The notes: generated by a model from the sequence alone, not told the origin. Shown: positions 49,708 through 61,844, numbered from the stretch's first letter. The stretch: DNA of 64,000 nucleotides from an uncultured Gammaproteobacteria bacterium (GCA_951828235.1 OX639965.1:2970129-3034128), one strand, 5' to 3'. A program made the numbers and translations.

Positions 49708-49926
49708 ATGAAACACCGCACCAGCGAACCGAAGCACTCTCCCGCGCGCCCGGCGGGAGACGCCGTGGCGCCGCACAACTCACCCCCGCCCCCGAATTTC
49801 AAACCAAGCTGGGCACGTCCGACAATCCGGGTCCTGCCGGTAGTCACGCACACGGCGTCCGGTACGCAGCCGTACACGGGCCCCAATCTCGAGGATCAAT
49901 CAGGGCACTACGTGACCACCTCCTGA
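49708..49926 (+). CDS. Candidate lasso-type precursor peptide P (72 aa)
   Basis: AAGGA lies 6 nt upstream of the ATG. MKHRTSEPKHSPARPAGDAVAPHNSPPPPNFKPSWARPTIRVLPVVTHTASGTQPYTGPNLEDQSGHYVTTS carries the shared leader motif WxRPx(V/I)R and the TxSG junction, with a C-terminal Ser. 177 nt upstream of the PqqD-like gene. Confidence 0.65.
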   Translation: MKHRTSEPKHSPARPAGDAVAPHNSPPPPNFKPSWARPTIRVLPVVTHTASGTQPYTGPNLEDQSGHYVTTS

Positions 49927-50102: not shown

Positions 50103-50384
50103 ATGCAGGTTGAACCGGAAATGCGCGTCGCGCGCAACGACGACATCATCTTCACCGCACTCGACGATACGGTAGTCATGATGGACGTCGACAAAGGACG
50201 CTACTACGAACTCGACCCAACGGCCGCCTCCGTCTGGGCGTTGCTGGAGCGCGAATCCCTTGTGGCCAGCCTGTGCGACGCCTTGCTGGAGCGCTACGAC
50301 GTCTCCGCGGAAACCTGCCGCCGCGACTTACAGGCGTTTCTGGGCGAGCTCGCCGACCTCGGCGTCGTGCAAATCCGGGCGTGA
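50103..50384 (+). CDS. PqqD-family RiPP recognition element protein (lasso B1)
   Basis: 93 aa. ...DDTVVMMDVDKGRYYELDPTAASVWALLERESLVASLCDALLERYDVSAETCRRDLQAFLGELADLGVV is a typical PqqD/RRE winged-helix pattern. Confidence 0.85.
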   Translation: MQVEPEMRVARNDDIIFTALDDTVVMMDVDKGRYYELDPTAASVWALLERESLVASLCDALLERYDVSAETCRRDLQAFLGELADLGVVQIRA

Positions 50385-50449: not shown

Positions 50450-51271
50450 CTATGCGCCGGGCACCAGGAATTCGTATCCGAAATACTCGAAGTTGTCCCG
50501 GTGGCGCCGGAACACGCGGTTGAAGGTGTCAATCTCGGCAGCGCCGAGGCGCCCGATCTGGCGATCGTTCATGTTGGTGAGCATTTCGTTGTACCGACCC
50601 TCCTTCACCCATAGGCGCTGGCGCAGTACAAGGTCGTCGAGTTCCGGCGCCAACGCGCGGATTTTCTCTTCTACCCTTGCCGGTTCATCGCACATCTCCT
50701 CGTAGGTGAAGAACACCCCGCGTTCGCCGTGGCGCTCCAGGTTGCGGCGCTGATAGGAGAAACAGTTCGATACGTGCGTCGCCGCCAACGTGGGCAGGTC
50801 CTCGCGGTTCCCCAGGGAAGAGCCCCGCAGATTGCGGCAGATGCCCTCGCACACCGCGTACGGGTTGCGCACCATGAACAGGAACTTCGCGTTGGGAAAG
50901 TGCCGGACCAGCTCGCCGACGTAGAGCAGAAAGGGCGGGGCCTTCGTATAAAAGACCGACGCCCGGGAGTTGCGCGCGAATGCCTGGAAATACCACGCCT
51001 TGCGCGTGCGCGGCCAATCGTAGGCGCCGGGGTCGGTCAGCCGGGCAAGCCAGTCCGGCTGCGCGCTCCAGATGAGGGGGACTCTCCCCCGATTGACCGG
51101 CCCGACAAAGCCGAGCATCCTCTGACCTTCGTGCACAAGGTTCCAGGTCCCCCGGCACGTCGCCAGCGCTTCCTTGAGGAAGCTCGAACCGCTGTTGTTC
51201 GCCGCGATGCCGAATAGGTGCGTCCCCACGGCGCCCTCGACATCATGCTGGGCTCCGTATATCCGGCTCAT
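50450..51271 (-). CDS. Sulfotransferase-family protein
   Basis: Start at MSRIYGAQ (ATG 51271, 4-nt overlap with the GT8 stop). PAPS 5'-phosphosulfate-binding-like loop IAANNSGSSFL, later FMVRNPYA (3'-PB-like). Confidence 0.7.
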   Translation of the reverse strand: MSRIYGAQHDVEGAVGTHLFGIAANNSGSSFLKEALATCRGTWNLVHEGQRMLGFVGPVNRGRVPLIWSAQPDWLARLTDPGAYDWPRTRKAWYFQAFARNSRASVFYTKAPPFLLYVGELVRHFPNAKFLFMVRNPYAVCEGICRNLRGSSLGNREDLPTLAATHVSNCFSYQRRNLERHGERGVFFTYEEMCDEPARVEEKIRALAPELDDLVLRQRLWVKEGRYNEMLTNMNDRQIGRLGAAEIDTFNRVFRRHRDNFEYFGYEFLVPGA

Positions 51272-52218
51272 TCGGCTTCCCCCGGTTGCGGCGCCGCCCC
51301 TCCCGCGCCCCTTCCGGCCACCCGCGCCACGGCCCGCAGGTGGCCGCTGGCCAGACACTCCAGCCACGCCTCGTACCACAGCCCGAAAAAACGACTCGGA
51401 GGGAAACGCCCGTCTCCCATCAATTGCCACATCATCCGGTCCGGCATCCAGGGCTTGACCGCACCGGTGAAGTGCAGCACCTTCGCCTCTTCCGCACGAA
51501 TACCCTCGCGCGCCCGGATGGCGTCGACGAGGTGCGTTCGATAGTTGTAGGTTGAGCTGACCAGCGTCTGCTGGCCGGCGAAGCGCCGGTTCAGGAGAAA
51601 CTGATCGGAGTGCACCGTATCGGCGCCATGCCACGACTCCGTCGTCACCAGCTCCGCCAGTTCCGAGTACGCGCGTTCGCCCGTCAAGCGCCCGTCGATG
51701 AGCAGCACACCGCAGCTGAAAGTCCGTTCGAGCGCGCCTCCGGGACCGGCGCGCGACGGACTCTCGATTGGCCGATACGTGTCCGCATCGTGGCACCAAC
51801 CCCTCATGAACTCGGTGTCTCCGCAGCACAGCAACGACTCAGCGGAGTCGAAAAGCTCGTCGACCGGCCCGCGAAACAGGAGGTCGCAGTCACAGTAGAA
51901 AACTTTCCGGAAGCCCTCCATCCGGAAAGCCTCGAGGGAATAGAAATCCGGCAGCTTCGAGCGCATGGCCGGACGGGCCTCGCCGAGGCGGATGAGCCGC
52001 TGCTCAAGGGCGGCGCCCACCCGCTCGAAACGCAGCGGCGGAAACGCCGATTCGAGCGATTCGCGCAGTTGCCCGGGCAATCCATCATGGCAGAACACGA
52101 TGTCCCCGCCGAATCGCGGATGCTGTTTCAGGAAGGAGCCGATGCTAACAACGGCTCCCGGCAGGAAATTCTCCGTTGCCGCGAAAACGAGGCAGACATC
52201 ACTCCATCGTGCGCTCAT
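51268..52218 (-). CDS. Glycosyltransferase family 8-like (retaining GT-A)
   Basis: Start at MSARWSDVCLVFAATENF (ATG 52218, 4-nt overlap with the upstream stop). FYCDCDLLF (DxD), GVLLIDG, VLHFTGAVKPW. Confidence 0.75.
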   Translation of the reverse strand: MSARWSDVCLVFAATENFLPGAVVSIGSFLKQHPRFGGDIVFCHDGLPGQLRESLESAFPPLRFERVGAALEQRLIRLGEARPAMRSKLPDFYSLEAFRMEGFRKVFYCDCDLLFRGPVDELFDSAESLLCCGDTEFMRGWCHDADTYRPIESPSRAGPGGALERTFSCGVLLIDGRLTGERAYSELAELVTTESWHGADTVHSDQFLLNRRFAGQQTLVSSTYNYRTHLVDAIRAREGIRAEEAKVLHFTGAVKPWMPDRMMWQLMGDGRFPPSRFFGLWYEAWLECLASGHLRAVARVAGRGAGGAAPQPGEAE

Positions 52219-54158
52219 CGCGAATTCCCCCCTGCGTTGCGCCCGGCCGATCCATCCGCAAGAAACGCTTTCGCCTCGCCGAGGTAGCCGAAGCGTTCCA
52301 TGATCGGACCGTTCGCATCGATGACCGCCCGTACCTGATCCCGCGTAAGCTCGTCGCGCCATGCCCCCGCCCCGCCCGACCGGAAGAACAGGCGCGCCGT
52401 CGGCGGCTTCTCGAAGAACCCGGAACGCTTCTCCTGGGCGCGCAGGCGCTCGAAGCGGGCGCGCTCCACCGCCCGCGAAAGGCGCCCTGCCTCCGGCTCA
52501 AGGCCCGCAAAACGCAGCACCTCCTCAAAGGCGGCCGCCGGGTTCGCCAGCAGATTCTCGTAACGGGCAACGTGAACCGGCAGCTCCCCCTGGTCCAGCC
52601 AGCTCGCTACGTGGCCGCTCCAGGTGAGCAGGGGCTGCGGGAGCACATGGTGGATGCCCCCGACCGGCTGCGACAGAGCGGCGTCGGGACGACATAGTTC
52701 CGCCACGCTACGGGCGATGGACCAGTTCCAGAAGTGCGCGTTGGAAACCGCCACGTCGAGCGGGTTGCGAACGAGGTAAACCGCCCCGCAGGTCACGGAC
52801 GAAGGGAAGAGAAGGCTCCCGCCCGCGGTGCGCAGGCAGGCGTCGTGGACCTTGACGAAGGTTGGGCGCCGCAACTCGGCGGCCAGCAGTTCGTGAAGCC
52901 GCGGCCGCGCTCGCAGGATCTCGTCCGCGGTCAGGTCGGATGAGGGCAGCCCCAGCTGATCGTCGAAAACCTCGCGCTGTTGGAAGTCAAGCCTGCCCAC
53001 GAGCGCGTCGATGGAAGCCGGTCCGTCGCCGTCCTCCAGGTAGTTTGTCAGCAGCGCCCGCAGCCAGGTGTTGCCGGACCGGGGATAGGAAGCAAGCCAG
53101 ACGATGGGCCCTGCATTCCCCTCACGCAAGGCAACATGCTCCGCAACCTTCAGCCGCGGGCGGCTCTTGCCCGTCCGCCACGGCGATGCGTTCGCACCAT
53201 CGATGAGCCTTGGCCACCCGTCGCGCAGACAAGCTTCGACCTCGTCCGCCAGCGCATAGATAGGGCTGCGCCACACGGGTTGCACCAACCGGGCGACCGG
53301 CGCCCGACCCACCAGCGCCACGAGCGCCCGAAACTGGGCGCGCCCCTGTCCGAGCCCGTGCGCGTACCGCTTGCGGTAGATTCGCCCGAGCAGTTGCTCG
53401 AACGCCGCGCCGCGCGAAGGCGCATCGATCCTGAAGCCGTCCTTGTTGTGGTGCATGAGCGTGAAGACTCCGCGCACCGTGATCGGCGCCTCCCGGAAAC
53501 GCGGGGCGGGCGCCAGGTACTTCTCCATTCCTTCCCGCACCCGCCCCTGCACCCGGCTATTCCATCCCAGCGACTCCACCGCATCGGCCCACAGCCGAAG
53601 CCGTGGGTAGGCGGGCAGGGCCACGGGATGACCGCCTCCGTTCGGCACGATGCCCACCACGTCGTCGCAGAGCATCTCGTGCCCGCGGTCGAGCAGCGCC
53701 GCGAGCAGCGTGGATTTGCCGCTCCCGGAGTGGCCCGCAAACAGTACCGCGCCGGAGTCGGTGGCGATCGCACTCGCGTGCAGGGTGAGGACGCCGCGCT
53801 GCTTCAGGCACGCGGCCAGCACCGATCCGAGCAGGAAGGCGCTTACCGATGCGTCCCCGTCCCGGGCGGGTTGGACCGTGATCTCCCGCCCATCGCGGAC
53901 CAGGTAGCGGGCCACCGCGTCCACCACCATCAGGAAAACCCCGGGCGCAGCCTCCCAGGCACCGCGCCGCACCCGGGGTTTGGGCAGCGTATCCGGCACC
54001 GCGCCAATGCGGATGTCCACCTCCGTATCTGCCGTCGGGGAGGCGAGAGGAAGAGGAAGAGGAATCTCGGAGCGTATGACGAGCCCGTAGGCCGCGTAGT
54101 GGCGGGCGCCATGATCCATGGCGCTTTCCAGCGCCCGCACATTGTCCAGCCCGGTCAA
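52215..54158 (-). CDS. Fusion protein: HPr-kinase-like (HprK C-terminal domain-related) kinase plus C-terminal sulfotransferase domain
   Basis: 647 aa. N-terminal half has LHASAIATDSGAVLFAGHSGSGKSTLLAALLDRGHEMLCDDVV (HprK-like P-loop). C-terminal half has LASYPRSGNTWLRALL (sulfotransferase 5'-PSB) and YLVRNPLDVAVS (3'-PB). Confidence 0.8.
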   Translation of the reverse strand: MTGLDNVRALESAMDHGARHYAAYGLVIRSEIPLPLPLASPTADTEVDIRIGAVPDTLPKPRVRRGAWEAAPGVFLMVVDAVARYLVRDGREITVQPARDGDASVSAFLLGSVLAACLKQRGVLTLHASAIATDSGAVLFAGHSGSGKSTLLAALLDRGHEMLCDDVVGIVPNGGGHPVALPAYPRLRLWADAVESLGWNSRVQGRVREGMEKYLAPAPRFREAPITVRGVFTLMHHNKDGFRIDAPSRGAAFEQLLGRIYRKRYAHGLGQGRAQFRALVALVGRAPVARLVQPVWRSPIYALADEVEACLRDGWPRLIDGANASPWRTGKSRPRLKVAEHVALREGNAGPIVWLASYPRSGNTWLRALLTNYLEDGDGPASIDALVGRLDFQQREVFDDQLGLPSSDLTADEILRARPRLHELLAAELRRPTFVKVHDACLRTAGGSLLFPSSVTCGAVYLVRNPLDVAVSNAHFWNWSIARSVAELCRPDAALSQPVGGIHHVLPQPLLTWSGHVASWLDQGELPVHVARYENLLANPAAAFEEVLRFAGLEPEAGRLSRAVERARFERLRAQEKRSGFFEKPPTARLFFRSGGAGAWRDELTRDQVRAVIDANGPIMERFGYLGEAKAFLADGSAGRNAGGNSR

Positions 54159-54182
54159 GAGTCAGGCAGATGCCAAGGGCTA

Positions 54183-54374
54183 TCAGAAGAAAGGAAAATA
54201 GGTCGGGACGTGGTGCTCACCGCTTGGGTTCACATTTGAATCGCCACTTTCGGTGTGCTGCATTCCCATGATCCGAACGGCGGGACGGGTCCAGTGTGAT
54301 TTGCGCTGGATCGAGCGTCGTGGCGAGTTGTCAGCATACCCCCTCCCCCGCGTTTTCAGAGGAATGCGCTGCAT
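54183..54374 (-). CDS. Candidate lasso-type precursor peptide A (63 aa)
   Basis: MQRIPLKTRGRGYADNSPRRSIQRKSHWTRPAVRIMGMQHTESGDSNVNPSGEHHVPTYFPFF. Its stop lies 25 nt upstream of, and co-oriented with, the kinase-sulfotransferase gene. Shares the leader motif. In a hand alignment with the 59482 copy, 8 of 17 substitutions fall at codon position 3. Confidence 0.55.
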   Translation of the reverse strand: MQRIPLKTRGRGYADNSPRRSIQRKSHWTRPAVRIMGMQHTESGDSNVNPSGEHHVPTYFPFF

Positions 54375-54394
54375 CCGAAAACGGCACGGCCTTT

Positions 54395-55171
54395 ATGCTC
54401 GGTCGATTGTCAGACATTTCATTCACCTTGTTCCAGCAGGAAGACGCACCGTGCCAATACTACCACTCTCGCGGCTTTTCCGGCGCGGACCGCAATGCTA
54501 CACTCCGGCGCGTGGAGACGCACGAAGGACGTTCCGCTGCCCCGCCGGCGGCCGAACCCAGCGGGATCGCCCGCGTCCGGAAGCCGACCCGATTTCGTGC
54601 CCTCGGTTCGGTTGACGTGCAGGCGTTGCGGCGCCAGGTCGGGCGCCTCTCGGAGCGGGTCTGGAGGCAGGAAGACGCGATAAAGGAGAACGCCTATCGC
54701 TGCTTTGACCATACTCAGCACATCGTTTTTCGGTTCATCGAGGGCAACCGCGACCCGCGGCGGTTCTACTCGCAGCCGAGCTGGGCAGTCTGGAGTCCGA
54801 TGCTGCTCGCGGTAATGGAGCCGGCCGCGGCGCCGTACCGGTTTCAGGAGCCAGCCTTCCCCAAGGTGATGCTTGCCCGGCTCAAGCCGGGTCACGTGAT
54901 CGAACGGCACGACGATGGCGAGACCGACTGCTCGCACCCGTTCGTGCACAAAATCCATGTGCCGCTGGAGACGAATCTCGGAGCCCTGGTGCACGTGGAC
55001 GGCGAAGACCTCCACCTGGAGGTGGGACAGGCATGGGAGATCAATAACCTCGCGCGGCACGGAGCCGTGAACCGGGGACGAACGGATCGCATCCACCTTG
55101 TTTTCGAGGTCTTCGAAGGGGCGCAGGTGACGATGCCGGAAGATCGTCAACGCACAGCCGCCCGCACTTGA
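54395..55171 (+). CDS. Aspartyl/asparaginyl beta-hydroxylase-family (cupin) protein
   Basis: The ORF is open from GTG 54296; ATG 54395 is the conservative start. LARLKPGHVIERHDD...HKIHVPLETN...EVGQAWEINNLARHGAVN matches the Asp_Arg_Hydrox pattern. Confidence 0.75.
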   Translation: MLGRLSDISFTLFQQEDAPCQYYHSRGFSGADRNATLRRVETHEGRSAAPPAAEPSGIARVRKPTRFRALGSVDVQALRRQVGRLSERVWRQEDAIKENAYRCFDHTQHIVFRFIEGNRDPRRFYSQPSWAVWSPMLLAVMEPAAAPYRFQEPAFPKVMLARLKPGHVIERHDDGETDCSHPFVHKIHVPLETNLGALVHVDGEDLHLEVGQAWEINNLARHGAVNRGRTDRIHLVFEVFEGAQVTMPEDRQRTAART

Positions 55172-55241
55172 CGGACCGCCCGATGCCGCCCGCAGGCACG
55201 GCTGGCGTCCGATTTCGGCATCCGCAGGACACAAACACACC

Positions 55242-57089
55242 ATGAGCACGATCTGCGGCATCCAGGATCCTTCCGTCGCCGCCGCCCCCCAACTGGACGG
55301 CATGCTGGACGCACTGCCGGGCCGGGAGACCGACGCGCGCGCCGCGTGGGCGGGGACCTCGGCGGTCCTCGGCTGGCGGGGCCGGCCCGATGTCGGGGCC
55401 GGCGAGGCGCAGGGCGTGCCCCACTTCGACGCCGAGAGCGGACTGACGATCACCGCAAGCGTGCGCCTCGACGGGCGGAACACGCTGTGCGAGGCACTCG
55501 GCGTGCCCGGCGCGCAGCGGCACACGATCGCCGACAGCGTGCTCGTCCTCAAGGCCTACCAGCACTGGGGCCTGGAGTGTCCTCGGCATCTGCTTGGCGA
55601 CTTCGCGTTCGCGCTGTGGGATGAAAAGCGCCGGAGGCTGTTCTGCGCACGCGACCATGTGGGCGCGCGCGCCTTTTGCTATGCGTTCGCGGGGGAGCGC
55701 TTCATTTTCGCGAGCGACATCGACACGGTATTGGCCGCGCCCGGGGTCTGCGAGGAATTCGACGAGACCGTGGTCGCGACCCGCCTGACATACGGCGCCC
55801 GTCCCCTTGGGGACCGCACCTGCTACCGGTCCATCCGCCGGCTGCTCCCCGGTCATGCTCTCGTCGTCGAGCGCGGCGCGCGGCGCTTCAAGCGCTGGTG
55901 GCGTCCCGAGGAGTTGCCTGAAGTCCGGAACGCCTCCGACGACGCCATAGCGGAGGAGTGCCTGGCGATTCTGAGCGAAGCGGTGCGGGACCGCCTGCGG
56001 GGACGCAGGCCCGTTGGCGTGCACCTGAGCGGAGGCCTGGACTCGTCCAGCATCGCCGTCCTCGCGGCTCGCGAACTCGCGCGCCAGGGGAGCGCGCCCC
56101 CGGTCGCCTTCGGTTGGCATCCGCCGCCCGGCCGCGGGCCGCGGGACGCCGCGGCGGACGCCGAGTACGGACCCATCGAGGCGGTGTGCCGTCAGGAGGG
56201 CATCAACATCGTCTACCAATCTCCGCAGGCCCGCGACGTGGTCGATTTCCTGCGCCGCGACGGCACCCGCCGCGCGGACGAGGGCTCGCTGATCCACGAA
56301 CAGATCGTGCAGCGGGCCGCGGCCGCGCGGGGCGTCGGCCTGCTCCTGTCCGGGTGGGGAGGCGACGAAGGCATCTCCTTCAACGGCCGGGGCTACTACC
56401 CGCTGCTGCTGCGAACCGGCCGGCTGGGCAAGCTGTGGCGGGAACTGCGGGAGTGCAGCTCCCGCCCTCTCGCCATGCTTCTGGAGCACGCGGCGCTGCC
56501 GCTGCTCGCTCCCGGCGCGGCGCGCGCGTCAAGGCGGTTGCGCCTTGGAGAGTCGGCCTTGCGGAAAAACATCACGTTCATTCACCCGGAATTTGCGCGT
56601 CGGGCCACGCTGCTGCCCGCAAAATCCCGGCCCTCTCCGGGAGGGCGGGGCGAGCAACTGCATGTGCTCCAGCTCGGCCACCTGAGCCGGCGCATGGAGG
56701 GGTGGGCCGCCAGCGGCGCAAGCCTCGGGCTTGAGTACGCCTATCCCCTGCTGGACCGGCGGGTGCTGGAATTCGCCCTCGGCCTGCCGCCGGATCAGTA
56801 CCGGCGCGGACGCTGGAGCCGTTGGCTGATACGTCACGCGCTCGGCTCGGTCCTTCCGCCCGCGGTTCGGTGGAACCGGCAAAAACGAGATCCCGCGCGC
56901 TACGAGCCGGCACTCGACGCCCTCGCGGAGGCGCTGCCGGTGGTGCGCGGGATGATCGCGGAACGACCGCCGCCACGGGGCCGCTACCTGGACCTGCCGC
57001 GCCTGTTGGAGCAGATGGAACCGAAACGCTGGCGCGACGGCGGAAGGTATGGGCCGGTCCTGAACGCCTTGCGTTTCCTGGATTTTTAA
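55242..57089 (+). CDS. Asparagine synthetase-like lasso peptide cyclase (lasso C)
   Basis: 615 aa. N-terminal MSTICGI (Ntn-type Cys), PP-loop HLSGGLDSSSIA, and AsnB-like architecture, next to RRE/B2/ABC genes. Confidence 0.9.
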   Translation: MSTICGIQDPSVAAAPQLDGMLDALPGRETDARAAWAGTSAVLGWRGRPDVGAGEAQGVPHFDAESGLTITASVRLDGRNTLCEALGVPGAQRHTIADSVLVLKAYQHWGLECPRHLLGDFAFALWDEKRRRLFCARDHVGARAFCYAFAGERFIFASDIDTVLAAPGVCEEFDETVVATRLTYGARPLGDRTCYRSIRRLLPGHALVVERGARRFKRWWRPEELPEVRNASDDAIAEECLAILSEAVRDRLRGRRPVGVHLSGGLDSSSIAVLAARELARQGSAPPVAFGWHPPPGRGPRDAAADAEYGPIEAVCRQEGINIVYQSPQARDVVDFLRRDGTRRADEGSLIHEQIVQRAAAARGVGLLLSGWGGDEGISFNGRGYYPLLLRTGRLGKLWRELRECSSRPLAMLLEHAALPLLAPGAARASRRLRLGESALRKNITFIHPEFARRATLLPAKSRPSPGGRGEQLHVLQLGHLSRRMEGWAASGASLGLEYAYPLLDRRVLEFALGLPPDQYRRGRWSRWLIRHALGSVLPPAVRWNRQKRDPARYEPALDALAEALPVVRGMIAERPPPRGRYLDLPRLLEQMEPKRWRDGGRYGPVLNALRFLDF

Positions 57090-57178
57090 TCTTGTATGAC
57101 CGCTGCTGCCCTTGCCTCAAGCCTCTTGTATACTTCCCTTGGACCGACGGTAGTTGCAGCAAGTCAGAGGCGATTGGA

Positions 57179-57403
57179 ATGAACGACACTCCACATAACG
57201 CAGGGAAGGCGGTGCCTTCCGGTACTGCGAAGTACCCCAGATTGGGGGGGCAAGACTCACCCGGCCGTAAAGAGCACCGAGGCGACAGGCTACCGTGGTC
57301 TCGCCCCGCGGTGCGCGTAATGACAGGAGTCCGATCAACCAAGAGCGGACCAGAGGCTAACAATCCATCTGTGGAGAACGAATTTTATCGACCAACATCT
57401 TGA
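57179..57403 (+). CDS. Candidate lasso-type precursor peptide C (74 aa)
   Basis: AGAGG lies 8 nt upstream of the ATG. MNDTPHNAGKAVPSGTAKYPRLGGQDSPGRKEHRGDRLPWSRPAVRVMTGVRSTKSGPEANNPSVENEFYRPTS. Lies between the cyclase and the ABC exporter. Has the leader motif, the TKSG junction and a C-terminal Ser. Confidence 0.7.
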   Translation: MNDTPHNAGKAVPSGTAKYPRLGGQDSPGRKEHRGDRLPWSRPAVRVMTGVRSTKSGPEANNPSVENEFYRPTS

Positions 57404-57655
57404 CCCTGCACAGACGACATAAGCACATAACACGGCAGAACAGGCTCTCTTGAACGCGCGCCATCGTCCAGGGCATTGCTATAGGGCGTGATTCAATTCT
57501 CCCTGTTCGCCTCGGCATTGCCATCGCGCCAGCGCATTGTTACGGTAGCCGCAGGTTCCCTGCCTGATTTCCGCGAGGCAATTGACACCGATTCAGATTT
57601 TGCCTGCCTCCGCGCCGGTGTCACGCACCACTGAAACCCGGACCCGGCTGGCGCC

Positions 57656-59491
57656 ATGACGGCGCAACCCACGCCCCAGAACCCCACAATGCCCCGCTCG
57701 GCCGAAGGCGCGTTTCGCGGCGCCGGCGCCCTCGTCGCCGAACTGCTCGCCCGAGCGCCCGGCCTTTCCGCGCTTGCGCTCGCGCTGCTCCTGACCGCGG
57801 CCGTGACAGAGGCGTTCGGCCTTGCGTTGATCGTTCCCCTGCTGTACGTCACGGGTCTTGCCGAATCCTCCGGCAACCGTCCCCCCGTAGTGGACGCCGT
57901 CGCCGCCGCCGCCGAACGCATCGGCCTGGAACTCACGCTGCCGTCGGTTCTCGCCATCTTTCTGGCGCTGGCTGCCGTGCGTGTCGCCGCCGCATGGCAG
58001 CGGCAGCAGGTCCTGGCCCGCCTCGCGCACGGATTCGAGGACCGGCTTCGCGGCGATCTATACGCCGCGACGGCTTCGGCGAAGTGGTCCCACCTGATCC
58101 GCTGGCGCCGCTCCGACATCCACCATGCGCTGACTCGGGAAATTCGCCGCGCCGGGAGCAGCGTCAACCTGCTCTGTCAGCTCGCCGCAGGCTCAGTGCT
58201 TGCACTGGCCCAGTTTGCCGTCGCCGTCGCGATCGACCCGCTGGTCTCGCTCGGCGCGTTGGTCGCCGGCGCCGCACTGGCGTTCCTGACGGTCCCGCTG
58301 GCTTCGCGCTCCTCGCGCCGCGGCACGCAGTTGACGCGGCGCAACGAGGCGCTGCACGCCCTGGTGTCGGACTTCCTGGCCGGTCTCAGGCTCGTCAAGA
58401 GCCACAACGCCGAAGGGCGCCACCTCGGGGACTTCACGGCCGCGGCGCGCGCGACCCGGCAAAGCGAGCTGGCGTCCCGGGCCACGCTCGCCGCCGCGCG
58501 CGCCGTCATGGACCTGGGCGCGGCATGTACGCTGGCCGCCCTGGCCTACGCGGCGATCATCTTTTCCGGCCTGGCTCTGCCCGAACTGCTCGTTCTGGTG
58601 CTGGTCTTCGCCCGCCTGATACCGTCCCTCTCGCGCCTGCAGCAGTTCGCCCAGCAGCTGGCCCAGCAATTGCCGGCCTACGCGCACGCCACCGGCATGA
58701 TCCGCCGGTTGCGCCGGGGCGCCGAGCCGATCCCGAAGGAAAGCCGCTTCCCGCTGCGCCTGCGCGACGCCCTGAACGTGTCCGGCCTTTCGTTCGCTTA
58801 CCCATCCTCGCCCGAAACCCCGGTCCTGACGGACGTGAACCTGTGCGTTCCGACCGGCCGATTCGTCGCCGTCATGGGTCCGTCGGGCGTCGGCAAAAGC
58901 ACGTTCGCAGACCTTCTTTTCGGCCTCCTGGAGCCCTGCCGCGGCGAGATCGCGATCGACGGCGCGCCGTTGACGCCTGCCAACGCGCGGCGCTGGCGCG
59001 ATTCGGCCGCCTACGTCCCCCAGGAGCCCTACCTGTTTCACGAATCCATCCGCGCCAACATGCTCAGAGCCAACCCGAAGGCTTCCGGCGCCGAACTTGA
59101 ACGGTCGCTCTCCCTCGCCGACGCCCGCCGCTTCGTCGATGCCCTGCCCCGGGGACTCGACACGGTGGTCGGTGATCGCGGCGCCCGCCTTTCGAGCGGC
59201 GAGCGCCAGCGCATCGCGATCGCTCAGGCGTTGCTCCGGAACCCGGCGCTGCTACTGCTCGACGAACCCACCGCAAATCTGGACGCCGCCTCGGAGCGCC
59301 GGATCGTGGCGACGCTGGCCTCCCTGTGCCCACGCGTCACGGTCGTGACCATGACCCACCGGCCGGAGCCCGCCAAGCACGCGGACAACATCGTCCTGCT
59401 ACGATCCGGCCGCGTTGCCGCCACCGGACGCTGGAGTGAACTCGAAGCCGCGCTCGAGGGTCCGCTAGATGCCAAGGGCGATCAGGAGTAA
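57656..59491 (+). CDS. ABC transporter, fused permease/ATPase (lasso D-type exporter)
   Basis: 611 aa. 6 TM helices, then Walker A GPSGVGKST, signature LSSGERQRIAIA, Walker B LLLLDEP. Confidence 0.9.
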   Translation: MTAQPTPQNPTMPRSAEGAFRGAGALVAELLARAPGLSALALALLLTAAVTEAFGLALIVPLLYVTGLAESSGNRPPVVDAVAAAAERIGLELTLPSVLAIFLALAAVRVAAAWQRQQVLARLAHGFEDRLRGDLYAATASAKWSHLIRWRRSDIHHALTREIRRAGSSVNLLCQLAAGSVLALAQFAVAVAIDPLVSLGALVAGAALAFLTVPLASRSSRRGTQLTRRNEALHALVSDFLAGLRLVKSHNAEGRHLGDFTAAARATRQSELASRATLAAARAVMDLGAACTLAALAYAAIIFSGLALPELLVLVLVFARLIPSLSRLQQFAQQLAQQLPAYAHATGMIRRLRRGAEPIPKESRFPLRLRDALNVSGLSFAYPSSPETPVLTDVNLCVPTGRFVAVMGPSGVGKSTFADLLFGLLEPCRGEIAIDGAPLTPANARRWRDSAAYVPQEPYLFHESIRANMLRANPKASGAELERSLSLADARRFVDALPRGLDTVVGDRGARLSSGERQRIAIAQALLRNPALLLLDEPTANLDAASERRIVATLASLCPRVTVVTMTHRPEPAKHADNIVLLRSGRVAATGRWSELEAALEGPLDAKGDQE

Positions 59492-59637
59492 GGAAAATAG
59501 GTGGGGACGTGGTGCTCACCGCTTGGGTTCACGTCCGGATCGCCACTTTCAGTGCGCTCCATTGCCATGACCCGGACCGTGGGGCGAGTCCAGTGTGATT
59601 TGCGCGGGGCTGCGCGTCGTAGCGAGTTGTCAGCAAT
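59482..59637 (-). CDS. Precursor-like coding segment B1 (paralog of peptide A); start codon unresolved
   Basis: ..IADNSLRRAAPRKSHWTRPTVRVMAMERTESGDPDVNPSGEHHVPTYFPYS, stop at 59482. No ATG/GTG/TTG lies between the G14 tract and the leader motif. Only the frame through the G14 tract (TTG 59769) is open. The A-like upstream frame (GTG at about 59686) would need 13 or 16 G. Confidence 0.45.
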   Translation of the reverse strand: MADNSLRRAAPRKSHWTRPTVRVMAMERTESGDPDVNPSGEHHVPTYFPYS

Positions 59638-59834
59638 CCCCCCCCCCCCCCAATTTCCAGGGAATGCGCTGGTGGATGCGCCACACCGAAGGACACCGTA
59701 AAGAGCACCCAGGCGACAGGCTACCGTGGTCCCGCCCCGCCGTGCGTTTTTTGGAAGGAGTCCGATCAACCGCGACCGGACCAGAATTCTATAGGGTAGA
59801 GAATACGCCTCACTATGGACCTACTGCGTCTTAG
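59595..59834 (+). CDS. Candidate lasso-type precursor peptide B2 (79 aa from GTG 59595; alternative ATG 59664 or 59676)
   Basis: MICAGLRVVASCQQSPPPPNFQGMRWWMRHTEGHRKEHPGDRLPWSRPAVRFLEGVRSTATGPEFYRVENTPHYGPTAS. Shares GRKEHxGDRLPWSRPAVR with peptide C and SPPPPNF with peptide P. Gly-to-Glu spacing of 8 and a C-terminal Ser. Confidence 0.6.
   Translation: MICAGLRVVASCQQSPPPPNFQGMRWWMRHTEGHRKEHPGDRLPWSRPAVRFLEGVRSTATGPEFYRVENTPHYGPTAS
59638..59651. repeat. Homopolymer C14 (G14 on the minus strand)
   Basis: Read directly: ...cagcaat cccccccccccccc aatttcc. Lies in the overlap of the 5' regions of the divergent ORFs B1(-) and B2(+). Confidence 0.95.
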
Positions 59835-59871: not shown

Positions 59872-61188
59872 TCATGGGCGTACTGGGCATTTCGGCTTCT
59901 CTTTCGCATCCCCCGCAACCTGCAGACGTCCCGTACCGCCCCGGCGCGTTGTAGCTTGGCCGGAGCGTTTCCTGTTGCGCTCCAGCCTGCTGGCCAGCCA
60001 CAGGATCGGGCGCAGCGGCAGGTAGAGGAAGAACAGCCGATCAGGCAAATCCACCCTCCCCAAATCGTACGGCGCTACGCAAAGCCGGGCCAACTCGTGC
60101 GCCGCGCTGCGCCAGGACGGGTTCATCGCCTGACCGAGCCACAATTCGTCCATCCGTCGATCGAGGCCCTCAAGCCCTTTGCCGCCGTGCGGCCGGTTCC
60201 AGAGACGGCGAGTCGAGCGCATTGCGCGGCCGGCCCAGGCGCCCGGCGGCGGAAAAGCCGCAGGCGGGTCCACATGGAACATTTCCGAACACAGGAGAAG
60301 AGCCGCTCCGAACGCGGGCTCCAGCCGCAGTCCCTCGCGCCTGCACCGCTCGACGGCCGCAACGAGGTGGTCCTCGTCCATGGAAGCGAGCAGCGCAGCC
60401 ATGTCGCAAAGCCACTTCAGCCGGCTCCAGCGATGAAGCTGGCCGTGGATGGCCAGGTAGACCATCAGGTCGCCGTCGCCCAGGGAGGCGAAGGCTTGGC
60501 CGCCGATCTCGACGCTGACCGTGCTGGCGCTCAGCGTTTCAAAGGACGCGCGCAACAGGAACGGGTTGTTGACCAGGCGATGGTGCAGTTCCAGCTTGCC
60601 GTGGGGGCCGATAAAGAGGCGGTCCTTGACAAACCGGTCGTAGTGGCGGATGCGGGCCGGAGTCGGGTGAAATGACGGCTTGACAAGGCGCCAGCCACCC
60701 GACGCCAGAGCTTGGGCAGCCTCCGCGGCCTGCTCCCGCGGGACCAGCAGGTCAATGTCGATACAGTCCCTTGCAAGCGGCGTGCCGAACAACCGCATGC
60801 TCAGCGGCAGGCCCTTGAGCACCAGCGACGGAATACCGCTTGCGGCCAGACGATCCGTAGCCTCACGCAGGTCCGCGAGCTGCCGCAACCCTCGTCTCAT
60901 CCTGTGCTGTCGGAAGGGCTCCAGTGCAGCTTGCGCGTCGGGACTCGGGTCCGCGACGGCGCTCACGCCGCGGAGCAACAGCGAACCGACCCGGTGGCGC
61001 CTGGCGAGAGCGGCTACGGCGTTCCAGTCGGCGACGCCGTCGAGCGCCGCGGTATCCGCCTCCCGTGTGCCGACGCCCATGCCAAGGCGCAGCCCGGCAA
61101 GAAGGCCCGCGAACGGCGGCGTTCGAGCGCTGCGTGCGTTCCGCCGCTGCGCCGCCGCCGATGTTCCCATCAGGCCTTTCGGCATCAT
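59872..61188 (-). CDS. Uncharacterised nucleotidyltransferase-family protein (PF14907-like)
   Basis: 438 aa. ...LVLKGLPLSMRLFGTPLARDCIDIDLLVP... (GS/DxD nucleotidyltransferase-fold motif). 4-nt overlap with the upstream B2 gene. Confidence 0.7.
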   Translation of the reverse strand: MMPKGLMGTSAAAQRRNARSARTPPFAGLLAGLRLGMGVGTREADTAALDGVADWNAVAALARRHRVGSLLLRGVSAVADPSPDAQAALEPFRQHRMRRGLRQLADLREATDRLAASGIPSLVLKGLPLSMRLFGTPLARDCIDIDLLVPREQAAEAAQALASGGWRLVKPSFHPTPARIRHYDRFVKDRLFIGPHGKLELHHRLVNNPFLLRASFETLSASTVSVEIGGQAFASLGDGDLMVYLAIHGQLHRWSRLKWLCDMAALLASMDEDHLVAAVERCRREGLRLEPAFGAALLLCSEMFHVDPPAAFPPPGAWAGRAMRSTRRLWNRPHGGKGLEGLDRRMDELWLGQAMNPSWRSAAHELARLCVAPYDLGRVDLPDRLFFLYLPLRPILWLASRLERNRKRSGQATTRRGGTGRLQVAGDAKEKPKCPVRP

Positions 61189-61844
61189 GGCGATCTGGTC
61201 GACGAACGTCCCGGTTCGTCACCGTTGGGATACAGTGGCGACAGTGGAACGTAGGTGTCAAGTTCCCCGCCCCCGATGACGCACTGCCCGGCGACCATCA
61301 GCCAGGCGTGGTACTCGAGAGTCCGCTCCGGCGTTCGGCCTCGCCGCGCGCCGAAGACAAGACGGCTCGGGATACTCCGCCGGCGCAGCATCCATTGCGC
61401 CGCCATGGCCTGCGGCAGACAAAGCGCCTGGAACGGCAGGCGGCGGGCCACCTTGCGGACGACGCGCGCCATCTTTCGGGGGATACGCAGTCTCGCTGCC
61501 GCGCGCCGCTCTTCGTCGGCGCGTTCAGCCGGCCGCTCATCCGCGCCCGGGAGCATAGTGGAGCGCCGTTGCCTGGGCGATTCGGCGCGTTCGGGACAGG
61601 GCGAAGACTCCGGCACCATATCAAGACGACGGCGCCAGAACCGCATCGGCACATGCGCGACAAGCAGTCGCGCCAGCAGCAGGGTGAACGCCGCTTCCAG
61701 CGCCAGCGCCTGCGTTGCGGCCGGCAGGCGCAGAAAACTGCGAAGTCCGTTGACGGACGACGAAGCCCCGCGCTTTGCTGCGGCAAGCCGGCCCGCCCGC
61801 CGTCCCTGTTTCTTCATTTCGTCCTCGCCCACCACCTGCGCCAA
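61185..61844 (-). CDS. Lasso peptide biosynthesis B2 protein (transglutaminase-like cysteine protease, PF13471-like)
   Basis: 219 aa. ...LPFQALCLPQAMAAQWMLRRRSIPSRLVFGARRG....LEYHAWLMVAGQCVIGG gives the Cys...His pattern and the overall signature of leader peptidases of split-B lasso clusters. Confidence 0.85.
   Translation of the reverse strand: MAQVVGEDEMKKQGRRAGRLAAAKRGASSSVNGLRSFLRLPAATQALALEAAFTLLLARLLVAHVPMRFWRRRLDMVPESSPCPERAESPRQRRSTMLPGADERPAERADEERRAAARLRIPRKMARVVRKVARRLPFQALCLPQAMAAQWMLRRRSIPSRLVFGARRGRTPERTLEYHAWLMVAGQCVIGGGELDTYVPLSPLYPNGDEPGRSSTRSP

Follow-up and report, generated by a model that had tools for sequence, protein, structure and literature searches.

Within a window of 64,000 nucleotides, that is, the whole stretch of DNA analysed here, the interval from 49.7 to 61.9 kb holds an apparently complete lasso-type gene cluster. 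The cluster comprises one putative asparagine-synthetase-type cyclase, one B2 protease and one PqqD recognition protein, an HPr-kinase-like/sulfotransferase fusion, a second sulfotransferase, a GT8 glycosyltransferase, an NTP_transf_5 protein, an Asp/Asn beta-hydroxylase, an ABC exporter and five precursors. Homologous loci from other assemblies are denoted L followed by a number, database proteins P followed by a number; L001 is a genome that is 99% related to the window. The features are as follows.

49708..49926 (+), pre-P precursor (72 aa, MKHRT...VTTS; core ...THTAS-GTQPYTGPNLEDQSGHYVTTS), with the W35 codon at 49810, Thr49 at 49852, Gly52 at 49861, Glu62 at 49891, Asp63 at 49894, Tyr68 at 49909 and a C-terminal Ser; Glu at Thr+13. 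Protein P0001 has the same length and 98% identity.
50103..50384 (+), B1/PqqD-type leader-recognition protein (RRE), directly downstream of pre-P (PF05402, 76 bits; best NCBIfam hit lasso_PqqD_Bac; best PDB hit TbiB1, 5v1u, E = 2e-10).
50450..51829 (-), Sulfotransfer_3 family sulfotransferase, with the true start probably near 51270, because homologues are about 272 aa; homologous genes in L002, L004, L005 and L091.
51268..52362 (-), GT8 glycosyltransferase, with the start probably near 52200; conserved in L002, L004, L005, L008 and L091.
52215..54158 (-), HPr-kinase-like (ScmC-like) domain fused to a Sulfotransfer_1 domain.
54183..54374 (-), pre-A precursor (63 aa from the ATG at 54374; core ...HTES-GDSNVNPSGEHHVPTYFPFF), with W at 54293, Thr at 54254, Gly at 54245 and Glu at 54218; Glu at Thr+12. 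It ends in Phe-Phe, without a C-terminal Ser, whereas the L001 allele ends FPFS.
54296..55171 (+), Asp/Asn beta-hydroxylase family protein (PF05118), with the real start probably later, because homologues are about 205 aa; conserved in L002, L004-L007 and L091.
55242..57089 (+), putative lasso cyclase of the asparagine-synthetase type, the only one in the window.
57179..57403 (+), pre-C precursor (74 aa, MNDTPH...RPTS; core ...STKS-GPEANNPSVENEFYRPTS), with W at 57296, Thr at 57338, Gly at 57347 and Glu at 57374; Glu at Thr+12. The MND N-terminus matches homologues that begin MNE/MND.
57656..59491 (+), ABC exporter (membrane domain plus ATPase).
59482..59769 (-), pre-B1 precursor ORF, start uncertain (peptide 59482-~59650; core ...RTES-GDPDVNPSGEHHVPTYFPYS), with W at 59592, Thr at 59553, Gly at 59544, Glu at 59517 and a C-terminal Ser; Glu at Thr+12. 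The leader-coding part contains a G14 run (C14 on the + strand, 59638-59651).
59664..59834 (+), pre-B2 precursor (56 aa from the ATG at 59664; core ...STAT-GPEFYRVENTPHYGPTAS), with W at 59727, Thr at 59769, Gly at 59778, Glu at 59799 and a C-terminal Ser; Glu at Thr+10, the only canonical spacing of the five.
59872..61188 (-), NTP_transf_5 nucleotidyltransferase (PF14907, 159 bits), of the family of the enzyme that glycosylates phospho-Ser in pseudomycoidin (PMC8498205).
61185..61844 (-), lasso B2 leader protease, transglutaminase-like (NF033537, 73.4 bits against a cut-off of 33; PF13471, 77.6 bits).

The B2 protease and the PqqD protein are recovered by their family models. The cyclase candidate carries PF00733 and GATase domains, its best NCBIfam hit is the lasso isopeptide cyclase NF033535 at 325 bits, below the curated cut-off of 525, and it also hits the XrtA/PEP-CTERM amidotransferase model. 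It is present in single copy by tblastn, and has 1,226 database homologues at E <= 1e-20. The HPr-kinase-related domain is weak but consistent (TIGR04352/04355, PF07475; ScmC in homologues), and together with the C-terminal Ser on four of the five precursors it conforms to the expectation for phosphorylated lasso peptides of the paeninodin type. The best PDB matches of the fused sulfotransferase domain are Teg12, Teg14 and StaL, followed by aryl and tyrosine-ester (phenol-type) sulfotransferases.

The observation that prompted this analysis, namely that most cores do not place an acidic residue where a 7-9-residue lasso ring requires it, is confirmed. All five peptides were recovered by a six-frame search and in the ORF list, although pre-P lies outside the interval 54183-59834 to which the earlier note assigned its observation. 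The precursors share W-x-R-P-x-(V/I)...T-x-(S/T)-G...E...Y, with Thr 8 or 9 residues after the W-x-R-P-x-(V/I) motif, as expected of a lasso leader, where the Thr would be at -2 or -3 depending on the register. In an alignment of the five, W, R-P, T, G and E are invariant; among 18 family members W, P, T and Y are invariant, and G and E nearly so. Counted from the Gly of T-x-(S/T)-G, the conserved Glu is residue 8 in pre-B2, residue 10 in pre-A, pre-B1 and pre-C, and residue 11 in pre-P (Asp at 12); counting from the Ser/Thr adds one. Canonical lasso precursors need Thr+8 to Thr+10, such that an acceptor at core position 7, 8 or 9 is found only in pre-B2 (E9 from Thr1, or E8 from Gly1). This agrees with the counts of the earlier note. 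One correction concerns the N-P-S-x-E element, which the note described as recurring: the element is not conserved in the family, as pre-A and pre-B1 are near-identical duplicates and the L001 allele of pre-C reads T-P-A-V-E. Only the Glu itself and its spacing are conserved.

The spacing is a family trait rather than local decay, and dozens of related clusters share it. A family profile finds 49 proteins at E <= 1e-3 among 1.8 billion, of which we judged all but one (the repeat protein P0141) to be genuine precursors. Among 44 non-redundant representatives the first acid is found at Thr+8 in 4, at Thr+9 in 4, at Thr+10 in 10, at Thr+11 in 10, at Thr+12 in 10, at Thr+13 in 5, and at Thr+14 in 1. 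Hence 18 of 44 (41%) have an acid at Thr+8 to Thr+10, compared to 37 of 40 (92.5%) in more distant kinase-type lasso clusters, including those with the paeninodin-like pattern T-M|A-G-P-G-x-x-x-P-D (Fisher p = 5.6e-7). We note that this wider control set was picked by eye from motif hits, and some selection bias is possible. In 16 of the 44 representatives no acid is found anywhere in Thr+8 to Thr+11, and hence none fits either register. At least 14 distinct homologous cores contain a single acidic residue, located at Thr+10 to Thr+14 (Thr+11 or beyond in all but one). The same accessory gene set and the same precursor type recur in L002, L004, L005, L006, L007 and L091, and off-canonical spacing is found in the intact clusters of L002, L004 and L091. 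Related clusters also mix spacings: L091 holds precursors from Thr+10 to Thr+14, and the Thr+14 precursor lies directly upstream of a cyclase. A C-terminal Ser is found in 73 of 77 family cores, and the Tyr lies 3-7 residues after the acid.

The interpretation offered in the earlier note is partly supported. The note proposed an unexpected cleavage site, macrolactams of 10-12 residues, or copies that are not lasso substrates, and inferred that the Glu is functionally constrained. The constraint is supported: the Glu is near-invariant across the family, it is the only acidic residue in many homologous cores, and the pre-C core differs from its L001 allele by 9 substitutions in 14 nt without an indel, so that the presumed ring codons are hypervariable yet the Glu stays at the same distance. 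The third option is disfavored, as off-canonical spacing is the majority state of the family, with modes at Thr+11 and Thr+12. The note also suggested that Asp as residue 1 would give pre-A and pre-B1 a 9-residue ring. This is disfavored because the same register would make Pro residue 1 in pre-C, in L004 and in 15 of 74 family cores. Sequence alone does not separate a larger ring from a shifted cleavage, but every fixed register leaves 36-59% of the family outside 7-9, which favors larger rings.

We therefore consider the five ORFs as genuine precursors of an uncharacterized family of lasso-type peptides, related to the phosphorylated paeninodin/pseudomycoidin type, whose named hits come from Gemmatimonadetes and Acidobacteria metagenome-assembled genomes. 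The family probably makes larger rings or is cut at an unusual site, and our preferred reading, with a probability of about 0.5, is that macrolactams of 10-13 residues are formed on the conserved Glu. In this view, the PqqD protein binds the W-x-x-P-x-(V/I) leader motif, the B2 protease cuts at the invariant T-x-(S/T)-G, by analogy with paeninodin most likely as T-x|S-G with T-x-S|G as the alternative, and the single asparagine-synthetase-type cyclase joins the new N-terminus to the Glu across a segment of variable length. The predicted macrolactams are 9 (or 8) residues for pre-B2, 11 (or 10) for pre-A, pre-B1 and pre-C, and 12-13 (or 11-12) for pre-P, hence four of the five would exceed the range of 7-9 residues of all natural lasso peptides characterized to 2026. 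The short conserved module E-x(2-6)-Y-x(3-5)-Ser-COOH is the likely target of the tailoring enzymes: the kinase, the nucleotidyltransferase and the GT8 would act on the C-terminal Ser and the phenol-type sulfotransferase on the Tyr, and these bulky groups could serve as the stoppers a wider ring needs. The gene content, the motifs, the spacing and their conservation are established by the sequences, whereas the cleavage site, the ring closure on this Glu, the threading of the tail through an N-terminal macrolactam, and every modification are inferred. No product has been observed for any member of the family. A change of ring size by a single residue usually lowers the yield sharply, so that one cyclase serving four ring sizes would be unusual, and a Tyr is unlikely to lock a ring of 11-13 residues, which makes threading doubtful. 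In addition, related proteobacterial phospho-lasso clusters have repeatedly failed to give mature product in heterologous hosts (PMC10368454).

Alternative explanations are less likely but not excluded. The products might retain rings of 7-9 residues if the leader is cut, or the core later trimmed, at a precursor-specific position, for example D1-E9 in pre-A and pre-B1, A1-E7 or E1-E8 in pre-C, and Q1-E9 in pre-P. Indeed, for each precursor some suitable N-terminus can be chosen, the Val-to-Thr distance in the leader varies by one residue within the cluster, the L001 allele of pre-P has an Asp at Thr+11 that would give G1-D9, and non-Thr penultimate residues are documented in related phospho-lasso precursors (PMC10368454). 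We consider this unlikely, as the single B2 protease would have to cut at four different offsets from an invariant motif that is the conserved element next to the core, and no extra peptidase is encoded in the conserved clusters. A constant cut after the Gly results in the Pro at residue 1 noted above, and Pro is the one residue that even the most tolerant known cyclase rejects (PMC13632552). Likewise unlikely is that only pre-B2 is a real substrate, with the other four being decaying duplicates, decoys or regulatory leader-only peptides; we assign this the lowest weight. It is true that pre-A and pre-B1 are recent duplicates, the duplication having carried a fragment of the 3' end of the ABC gene, that pre-A has lost the C-terminal Ser, that pre-B1 has no obvious start codon and contains a G14 run, and that orphan precursors exist far from any cluster (L089). 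However, precursors with Thr+11, Thr+12 and Thr+13 are the majority of the family and are found intact in several other assemblies next to cyclases, the paralogous type GQMPVNNYLE (Thr+12) is kept on two separate contigs of one metagenome assembly (P0136, P0138), all five window ORFs keep every invariant residue, and the substitutions in pre-C indicate diversification with preserved length, not decay.

It is also possible, though again unlikely, that the products are not lasso peptides closed from the N-terminus to the Glu. The asparagine-synthetase homologue might activate the Glu for amidation or for attachment of another amine or sugar amine, or the products might be linear or unthreaded branched-cyclic peptides, heavily phosphorylated, glycosylated and sulfated, and perhaps linked to the surrounding exopolysaccharide pathway. 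The length of the presumed ring segment varies as freely as a linker, from Thr+8 to Thr+14, the cyclase score remains below the curated cut-off, the set of tailoring enzymes is unusually large, and the cluster sits inside EPS/sugar loci in the window and in L002, L004, L006, L007, L090 and L091. Against this, a dedicated B2 leader protease and RRE are conserved, both of which make sense if a free N-terminus is needed, the best family hit of the cyclase is still the lasso isopeptide cyclase, the protein has no N-terminal Cys for glutamine hydrolysis (it begins MSTICG), and the nearest characterized relatives, of the paeninodin type, are true lasso peptides that share the leader motif, the start of a small residue followed by Gly and the C-terminal Ser. 

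A more far-reaching extension of our preferred reading, tentative but given more weight than any of these alternatives, is that a widespread family, known so far mostly from metagenome contigs plus Acidobacteria and Gemmatimonadetes genomes, makes natural lasso or lariat peptides with rings of 10-13 residues closed by a length-tolerant cyclase, whose tail is held, if at all, by enzymatically installed bulk (sulfotyrosine and a phospho-glycosyl/sulfated C-terminal Ser) rather than by ordinary side chains. This would be a new way of building the mechanical lock.

The closest known systems are the phosphorylated and phosphoglycosylated class II lasso peptides of Firmicutes (paeninodin, ThcoA, pseudomycoidin). 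These share split B1 (PqqD) and B2 proteins, an asparagine-synthetase-type cyclase, an ABC exporter, an HPr-kinase homologue, an NTP_transf_5 nucleotidyltransferase and, in some clusters, sulfotransferase genes (PMC8498205), as well as a leader (Y/W)-x-x-P-x-(L/V) with Thr eight residues later. Paeninodin-like cores have the acceptor at Thr+10 (A1-D9; metagenomic relatives at loci L070, L074 and L084), whereas the present family has modes at Thr+11 and Thr+12 and adds the conserved Tyr, the kinase-sulfotransferase fusion, GT8, a second sulfotransferase, an Asp/Asn hydroxylase, long leaders of about 50 aa with a Gly-run, and 3-6 heterogeneous precursors per cluster. Proteobacterial phospho-lasso clusters (SyanA/SyanK of Sphingobium yanoikuyae and BsfA/BsfK of Bradymonas sediminis) likewise combine a kinase, a nucleotidyltransferase, split B1/B2 and a YxxPxL-type leader in gram-negative bacteria, with documented deviations from the Thr(-2) rule and no mature product obtained in heterologous hosts (PMC10368454, PMC9266682). 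BsfA is predicted as G1-D8 with the YxxPxL motif at -17 to -12 and Ile at -2; the present family keeps the Thr but moves the acid outwards.

With respect to ring size, the fusilassin/fuscanodin enzymes closed an unnatural 10-residue ring in a FusA variant (bioRxiv 10.1101/2020.11.25.399105), and one enzyme set makes both 8- and 9-residue rings in the caulosegnins (PMC13352647). The former is an engineered +1 variant and the latter a natural 8/9 pair, whereas here four different spacings occur with one cyclase and the implied sizes reach 11-13. Canucin A provides a further parallel, as its cluster contains an Fe/2-oxoglutarate-type hydroxylase, CanE, that acts on the linear precursor. CanE acts on a C-terminal Asp, giving beta-hydroxy-Asp, while the cores described here end in Ser and the hydroxylase is of the Asp/Asn beta-hydroxylase family PF05118. 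The Asn/Asp that frequently follows directly after the conserved Glu is only a candidate target.

The region 49.7-61.9 kb is a lasso-type RiPP gene cluster set inside an exopolysaccharide locus, with neighbouring genes that include Wzy, Wza/Poly_export, sugar transferases and epimerases. The core machinery is present once each, as assessed by tblastn, and no second cyclase or protease was found in the window. The PqqD recognition protein was identified by codon-position GC content and translation. The components are as follows.

55242-57089: asparagine-synthetase-type cyclase; best NCBIfam hit is the lasso isopeptide cyclase NF033535, at 325 bits against a cut-off of 525.
61185-61844: B2 transglutaminase-like protease, with a hit to NF033537 above its cut-off.
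50103-50384: PqqD recognition protein, with a hit to PF05402 and resemblance to TbiB1.
52215-54158: HPr-kinase-like/Sulfotransfer_1 fusion.
Further accessory genes: a Sulfotransfer_3 protein, a GT8 glycosyltransferase, an Asp/Asn beta-hydroxylase, an NTP_transf_5 nucleotidyltransferase and an ABC exporter.

By sequence, the cyclase has no solved lasso-cyclase relative in the PDB. A scan of genome contigs with the single cyclase sequence returned only one near-identical match, a contig of a Gemmatimonadetes MAG (L001) that carries a 99%-identical cyclase.

A six-frame motif search finds exactly the five peptides described in the earlier note, and the observation that their acidic residues are spaced unusually is confirmed. 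One of them, pre-P (49708-49926), lies outside the range assigned there, directly upstream of the PqqD gene. All five precursors share W-x-R-P-x-(V/I)-R, followed by T-x-(S/T)-G, a Glu and a Tyr, and four of the five end in Ser. A canonical lasso precursor has Thr at -2 and a 7-9-residue ring, which requires the acid at Thr+8 to Thr+10; the counting in the earlier note is correct.

Table. Position of the Glu in the five precursors, counted from the Gly and as offset from the invariant Thr.
pre-B2: 8 from Gly; Thr+10
pre-A: 10 from Gly; Thr+12
pre-B1: 10 from Gly; Thr+12
pre-C: 10 from Gly; Thr+12
pre-P: 11 from Gly (Asp at 12); Thr+13

At position 49885 of the window (3626 in L001), pre-P has Asn at Thr+11, as does the database protein P0001, whereas L001 has Asp. 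The Asp would allow a Gly1-Asp9 ring in that allele only. An alternative reading frame in the pre-A/pre-B1 duplicate (MLTTR...) was considered and rejected, as only the precursor frame matches the other three paralogues and the family. The duplication itself extends about 25 nt past the stop codon (54160-54185 and 59470-59491) and includes a remnant of the 3' end of the ABC transporter gene (DAKGDQE and a stop, against ADAKGYQ...); pre-A therefore looks like a copy of the pre-B1 locus inserted upstream of the kinase-sulfotransferase gene.

The spacing is a property of the family rather than a local oddity. The cyclase has 1,226 database homologues at E <= 1e-20, and the few named ones are from Acidobacteria and Gemmatimonadetes MAGs. 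We retrieved the neighbourhoods of homologues at 52-75% identity (loci L002 and L004-L008, then L090 and L091). Most show the same accessory set, namely GT8, Sulfotransfer_3, Asp_Arg_Hydrox, the kinase-sulfotransferase fusion, PqqD, B2, ABC and NTP_transf_5, and they carry precursors of the same design. In L004 (9154-9675) and in protein P0180, two independent sequences, the PqqD (B1) recognition domain is fused in frame to a precursor peptide (173 and 167 aa), such that the RRE and its own substrate are one polypeptide; in the window the order is reversed (pre-P, then PqqD) and the two genes are separate. The cluster is also repeatedly embedded in exopolysaccharide/sugar-nucleotide loci (Wzy, Poly_export, Bac_transf, epimerases, Metallophos) with partly conserved gene order, in the window (39.5-49 kb and 62-64 kb) as well as in L002, L004, L006, L007, L090 and L091.

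A first profile search with the five precursor sequences found only pre-P itself, whereas a 16-sequence profile recovered 20 database proteins and an exhaustive HMMER search 49. These proteins are 43-89 aa long; many begin MNE/MND and carry a Gly-run in the leader. The precursors match no Pfam or NCBIfam model. In 44 non-redundant representatives, the first acid at or beyond Thr+8 is distributed as listed below.

Table. Offset of the first acid at or beyond Thr+8 in 44 non-redundant representatives.
Thr+8: 4
Thr+9: 4
Thr+10: 10
Thr+11: 10
Thr+12: 10
Thr+13: 5
Thr+14: 1

Only 18 of 44 (41%) fit the Thr(-2) register, 27 of 44 fit a Thr(-3) register (Gly as residue 1), and 16 of 44 fit neither. 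At least 14 distinct cores contain one acidic residue only, located at Thr+10 to Thr+14, and hence have no alternative acceptor. As a control we used 40 precursors next to more distant cyclases (26-45% identity) from the metagenome scan, including paeninodin-like T-M-A-G-P-G-x-x-x-P-D peptides (inferred cut between Met and Ala). Of these, 37 of 40 have the acid at Thr+8 to Thr+10 (Fisher p = 5.6e-7). We note that the control set was chosen from motif hits by inspection and may carry some bias.

There is also evidence that the spacing is maintained by selection. The window and L001 are about 98-99% identical around pre-C, yet 9 of 14 consecutive nucleotides differ (window 57355-57368, columns 256-269 of the alignment with L001). 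The differences fall exactly in ring codons 3-8 (GPEANNPSVE against GPDELTPAVE), without any indel, such that the Glu stays at the same distance within a sharply localised hypervariable cassette. A Thr+12 paralogue type (GQMPVNNYLE) is conserved on two separate contigs of one metagenome assembly, alongside the Thr+11 type GQPMVTYLE. These Thr+12-type precursors are orphans far from any cyclase (L089 10001-10231, protein P0136; L092 2191-2415, protein P0138), one of them next to a 2808-aa protein in the same 6-Mb genome that carries the cluster seen in L005. Single clusters mix spacings: L002 has Thr+10/11/12 types and two Thr+13 types, and L091 has six precursors spanning Thr+10 to Thr+14, of which the Thr+14 one lies directly upstream of a cyclase. 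The C-terminal module is well conserved, with Tyr 3-7 residues after the acid and 4-6 residues before the end, and Ser as the last residue in 73 of 77 cores. The pre-A core ends Phe-Phe in the window (54186-54191) but Phe-Ser in the 99%-related L001; it is the only one of the 77 family cores ending in Phe and would escape modification at a C-terminal Ser.

Two simple rulers were tested and rejected. A fixed distance from the WxxPxV motif does not hold, as the Val-to-Thr distance is 8 in pre-A and pre-B1 but 9 in pre-P, pre-C and pre-B2 within one cluster, while known families use 8 (paeninodin) or 10 (canonical). Likewise, a constant length of ring plus loop with a floating Glu is ruled out by the Thr-to-Tyr distance, which also varies, from 15 to 19.

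With respect to the identity of residue 1, the pattern of an invariant Thr, a variable residue, a small residue and Gly mirrors the canonical T(-2)-x(-1)-residue 1 and favours Ser/Thr/Ala at Thr+2. Paeninodin-like metagenomic relatives (L070, L074 and L084) carry the same Leu-to-Thr distance (8) and an Ala-Gly start; in the paeninodin type, Ala is residue 1 and the ring is A1-D9. In favour of Gly at Thr+3, Gly is more conserved in this family than the residue before it (63 of 74 against 49 of 74), and this register would make the commonest spacing (Thr+11) a normal 9-residue ring. A cut after the Gly, as required for the D1-E9 ring suggested in the earlier note, would place Pro at residue 1 in 15 of 74 cores, including pre-C, and Pro is the one residue rejected even by the most tolerant cyclase described (PMC13632552). 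We lean about 65:35 to Ser/Thr as residue 1. In either register, four of the five window precursors fall outside 7-9.

In the most likely mechanism, the PqqD protein would bind the WxxPxV motif, B2 would cut at the T-x-(S/T)-G site, and the cyclase would close the N-terminus onto the conserved Glu. The predicted rings are then 9 (or 8) residues for pre-B2, 11 (or 10) for pre-A, pre-B1 and pre-C, and 12-13 (or 11-12) for pre-P. While the spacing and its recurrence across the family are established by the sequence analysis, leader binding, cleavage, ring closure and all modifications considered here are inferred. Natural rings are 7-9 residues (PMC10368454, PMC9266682, bioRxiv 10.1101/2020.11.25.399105), and literature searches for natural rings larger than 9 and for sulfated lasso peptides found nothing; the 'unprecedented ring' of metanodin is an Asn1, not a new size. 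However, an unnatural 10-residue fusilassin variant was formed enzymatically (bioRxiv 10.1101/2020.11.25.399105), and the caulosegnin enzymes make both 8- and 9-residue rings, although +/-1 changes generally depress yield.

A Tyr would be a weak stopper for a wide ring, but the cluster encodes enzymes that could add bulk. The kinase, NTP_transf_5 and GT8 could act on the C-terminal Ser, in parallel to paeninodin and pseudomycoidin. The closest solved relatives of the sulfotransferase domain are Teg12, Teg14 and StaL, and aryl and tyrosine-ester sulfotransferases also appear among the hits. Teg12, Teg14 and StaL are glycopeptide-antibiotic sulfotransferases that sulfate phenolic hydroxyls. The conserved Tyr is therefore a candidate sulfation site, and the frequent Asn/Asp immediately after the Glu is a candidate for the beta-hydroxylase.

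The interpretation offered in the earlier note is thus partly supported: the Glu is constrained, as had been inferred, decay of the copies is unlikely, and larger rings are favoured over shifted cleavage but not proven. Precursor-specific cleavage or trimming that restores 7-9 rings is possible for each peptide but appears unlikely, as it needs one protease to ignore its own conserved motif. Slightly less improbable, though still doubtful, is a different chemistry on the Glu, or linear or unthreaded decorated peptides tied to the EPS pathway. This is suggested by the linker-like length variation, the sub-threshold cyclase score with a secondary hit to the PEP-CTERM amidotransferase model, and the recurrent EPS context, whereas the conserved B1/B2 pair argues against it. 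The least likely alternative is that these are decayed or decoy copies. It could draw on the missing terminal Ser of pre-A and on pre-B1, which has no clear start codon and a G14 run, but the off-canonical spacing is the family norm. The run (C14 on the plus strand, 59638-59651) lies inside the putative leader-coding part of pre-B1 and 12 nt upstream of the pre-B2 ATG, and pre-A has an interrupted version that shifts the upstream frame; it could be slippage-prone (phase variation) or an assembly weak point.

The system is evolutionarily related to the phosphorylated lasso peptides (paeninodin, ThcoA, pseudomycoidin, SyanA, BsfA) and is predicted to work like them. Its leaders, B2 protease and PqqD protein fulfil the criteria of lasso clusters, with the cyclase scoring as stated, but the acceptor position does not for four of the five precursors here and for 36-59% of the family. 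We found no description of this family in the searchable literature, and the product may be an oversized lasso, a lariat or another type. The 7-9-residue ring is treated as a defining rule of lasso peptides: structure-building tools such as LassoPred are limited to rings of 7, 8 or 9 residues, and RODEO-type precursor scoring also expects the acid at positions 7-9. A family outside these limits may therefore be overlooked by such tools, consistent with the absence of Pfam and NCBIfam matches. Natural 10-13-residue rings made by one tolerant cyclase would be surprising. If the rings are indeed larger, the chemical and topological space of lasso peptides widens, a naturally ring-size-tolerant cyclase becomes available for engineering, and the question arises how a wide ring is kept threaded. 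If instead cleavage is shifted, the Thr(-2) rule used to call core peptides needs revision for this clade. The window supplies a compact set of five substrates and one enzyme set on which either outcome is directly testable.

The top hit of the precursor-profile search, P0141 (686 aa), is a protein with 10 tandem ~68-aa repeats, each containing the leader-like motif WKQPSIRV(M/I)SGQEG, and is either an unrelated repeat protein or a multi-copy precursor. Some family cores (P0148, P0150, the one starting at position 1842 of L091, and P0176) carry two Cys residues, one in the ring segment and one next to the C-terminal Ser, which suggests disulfide-braced variants within the same family.
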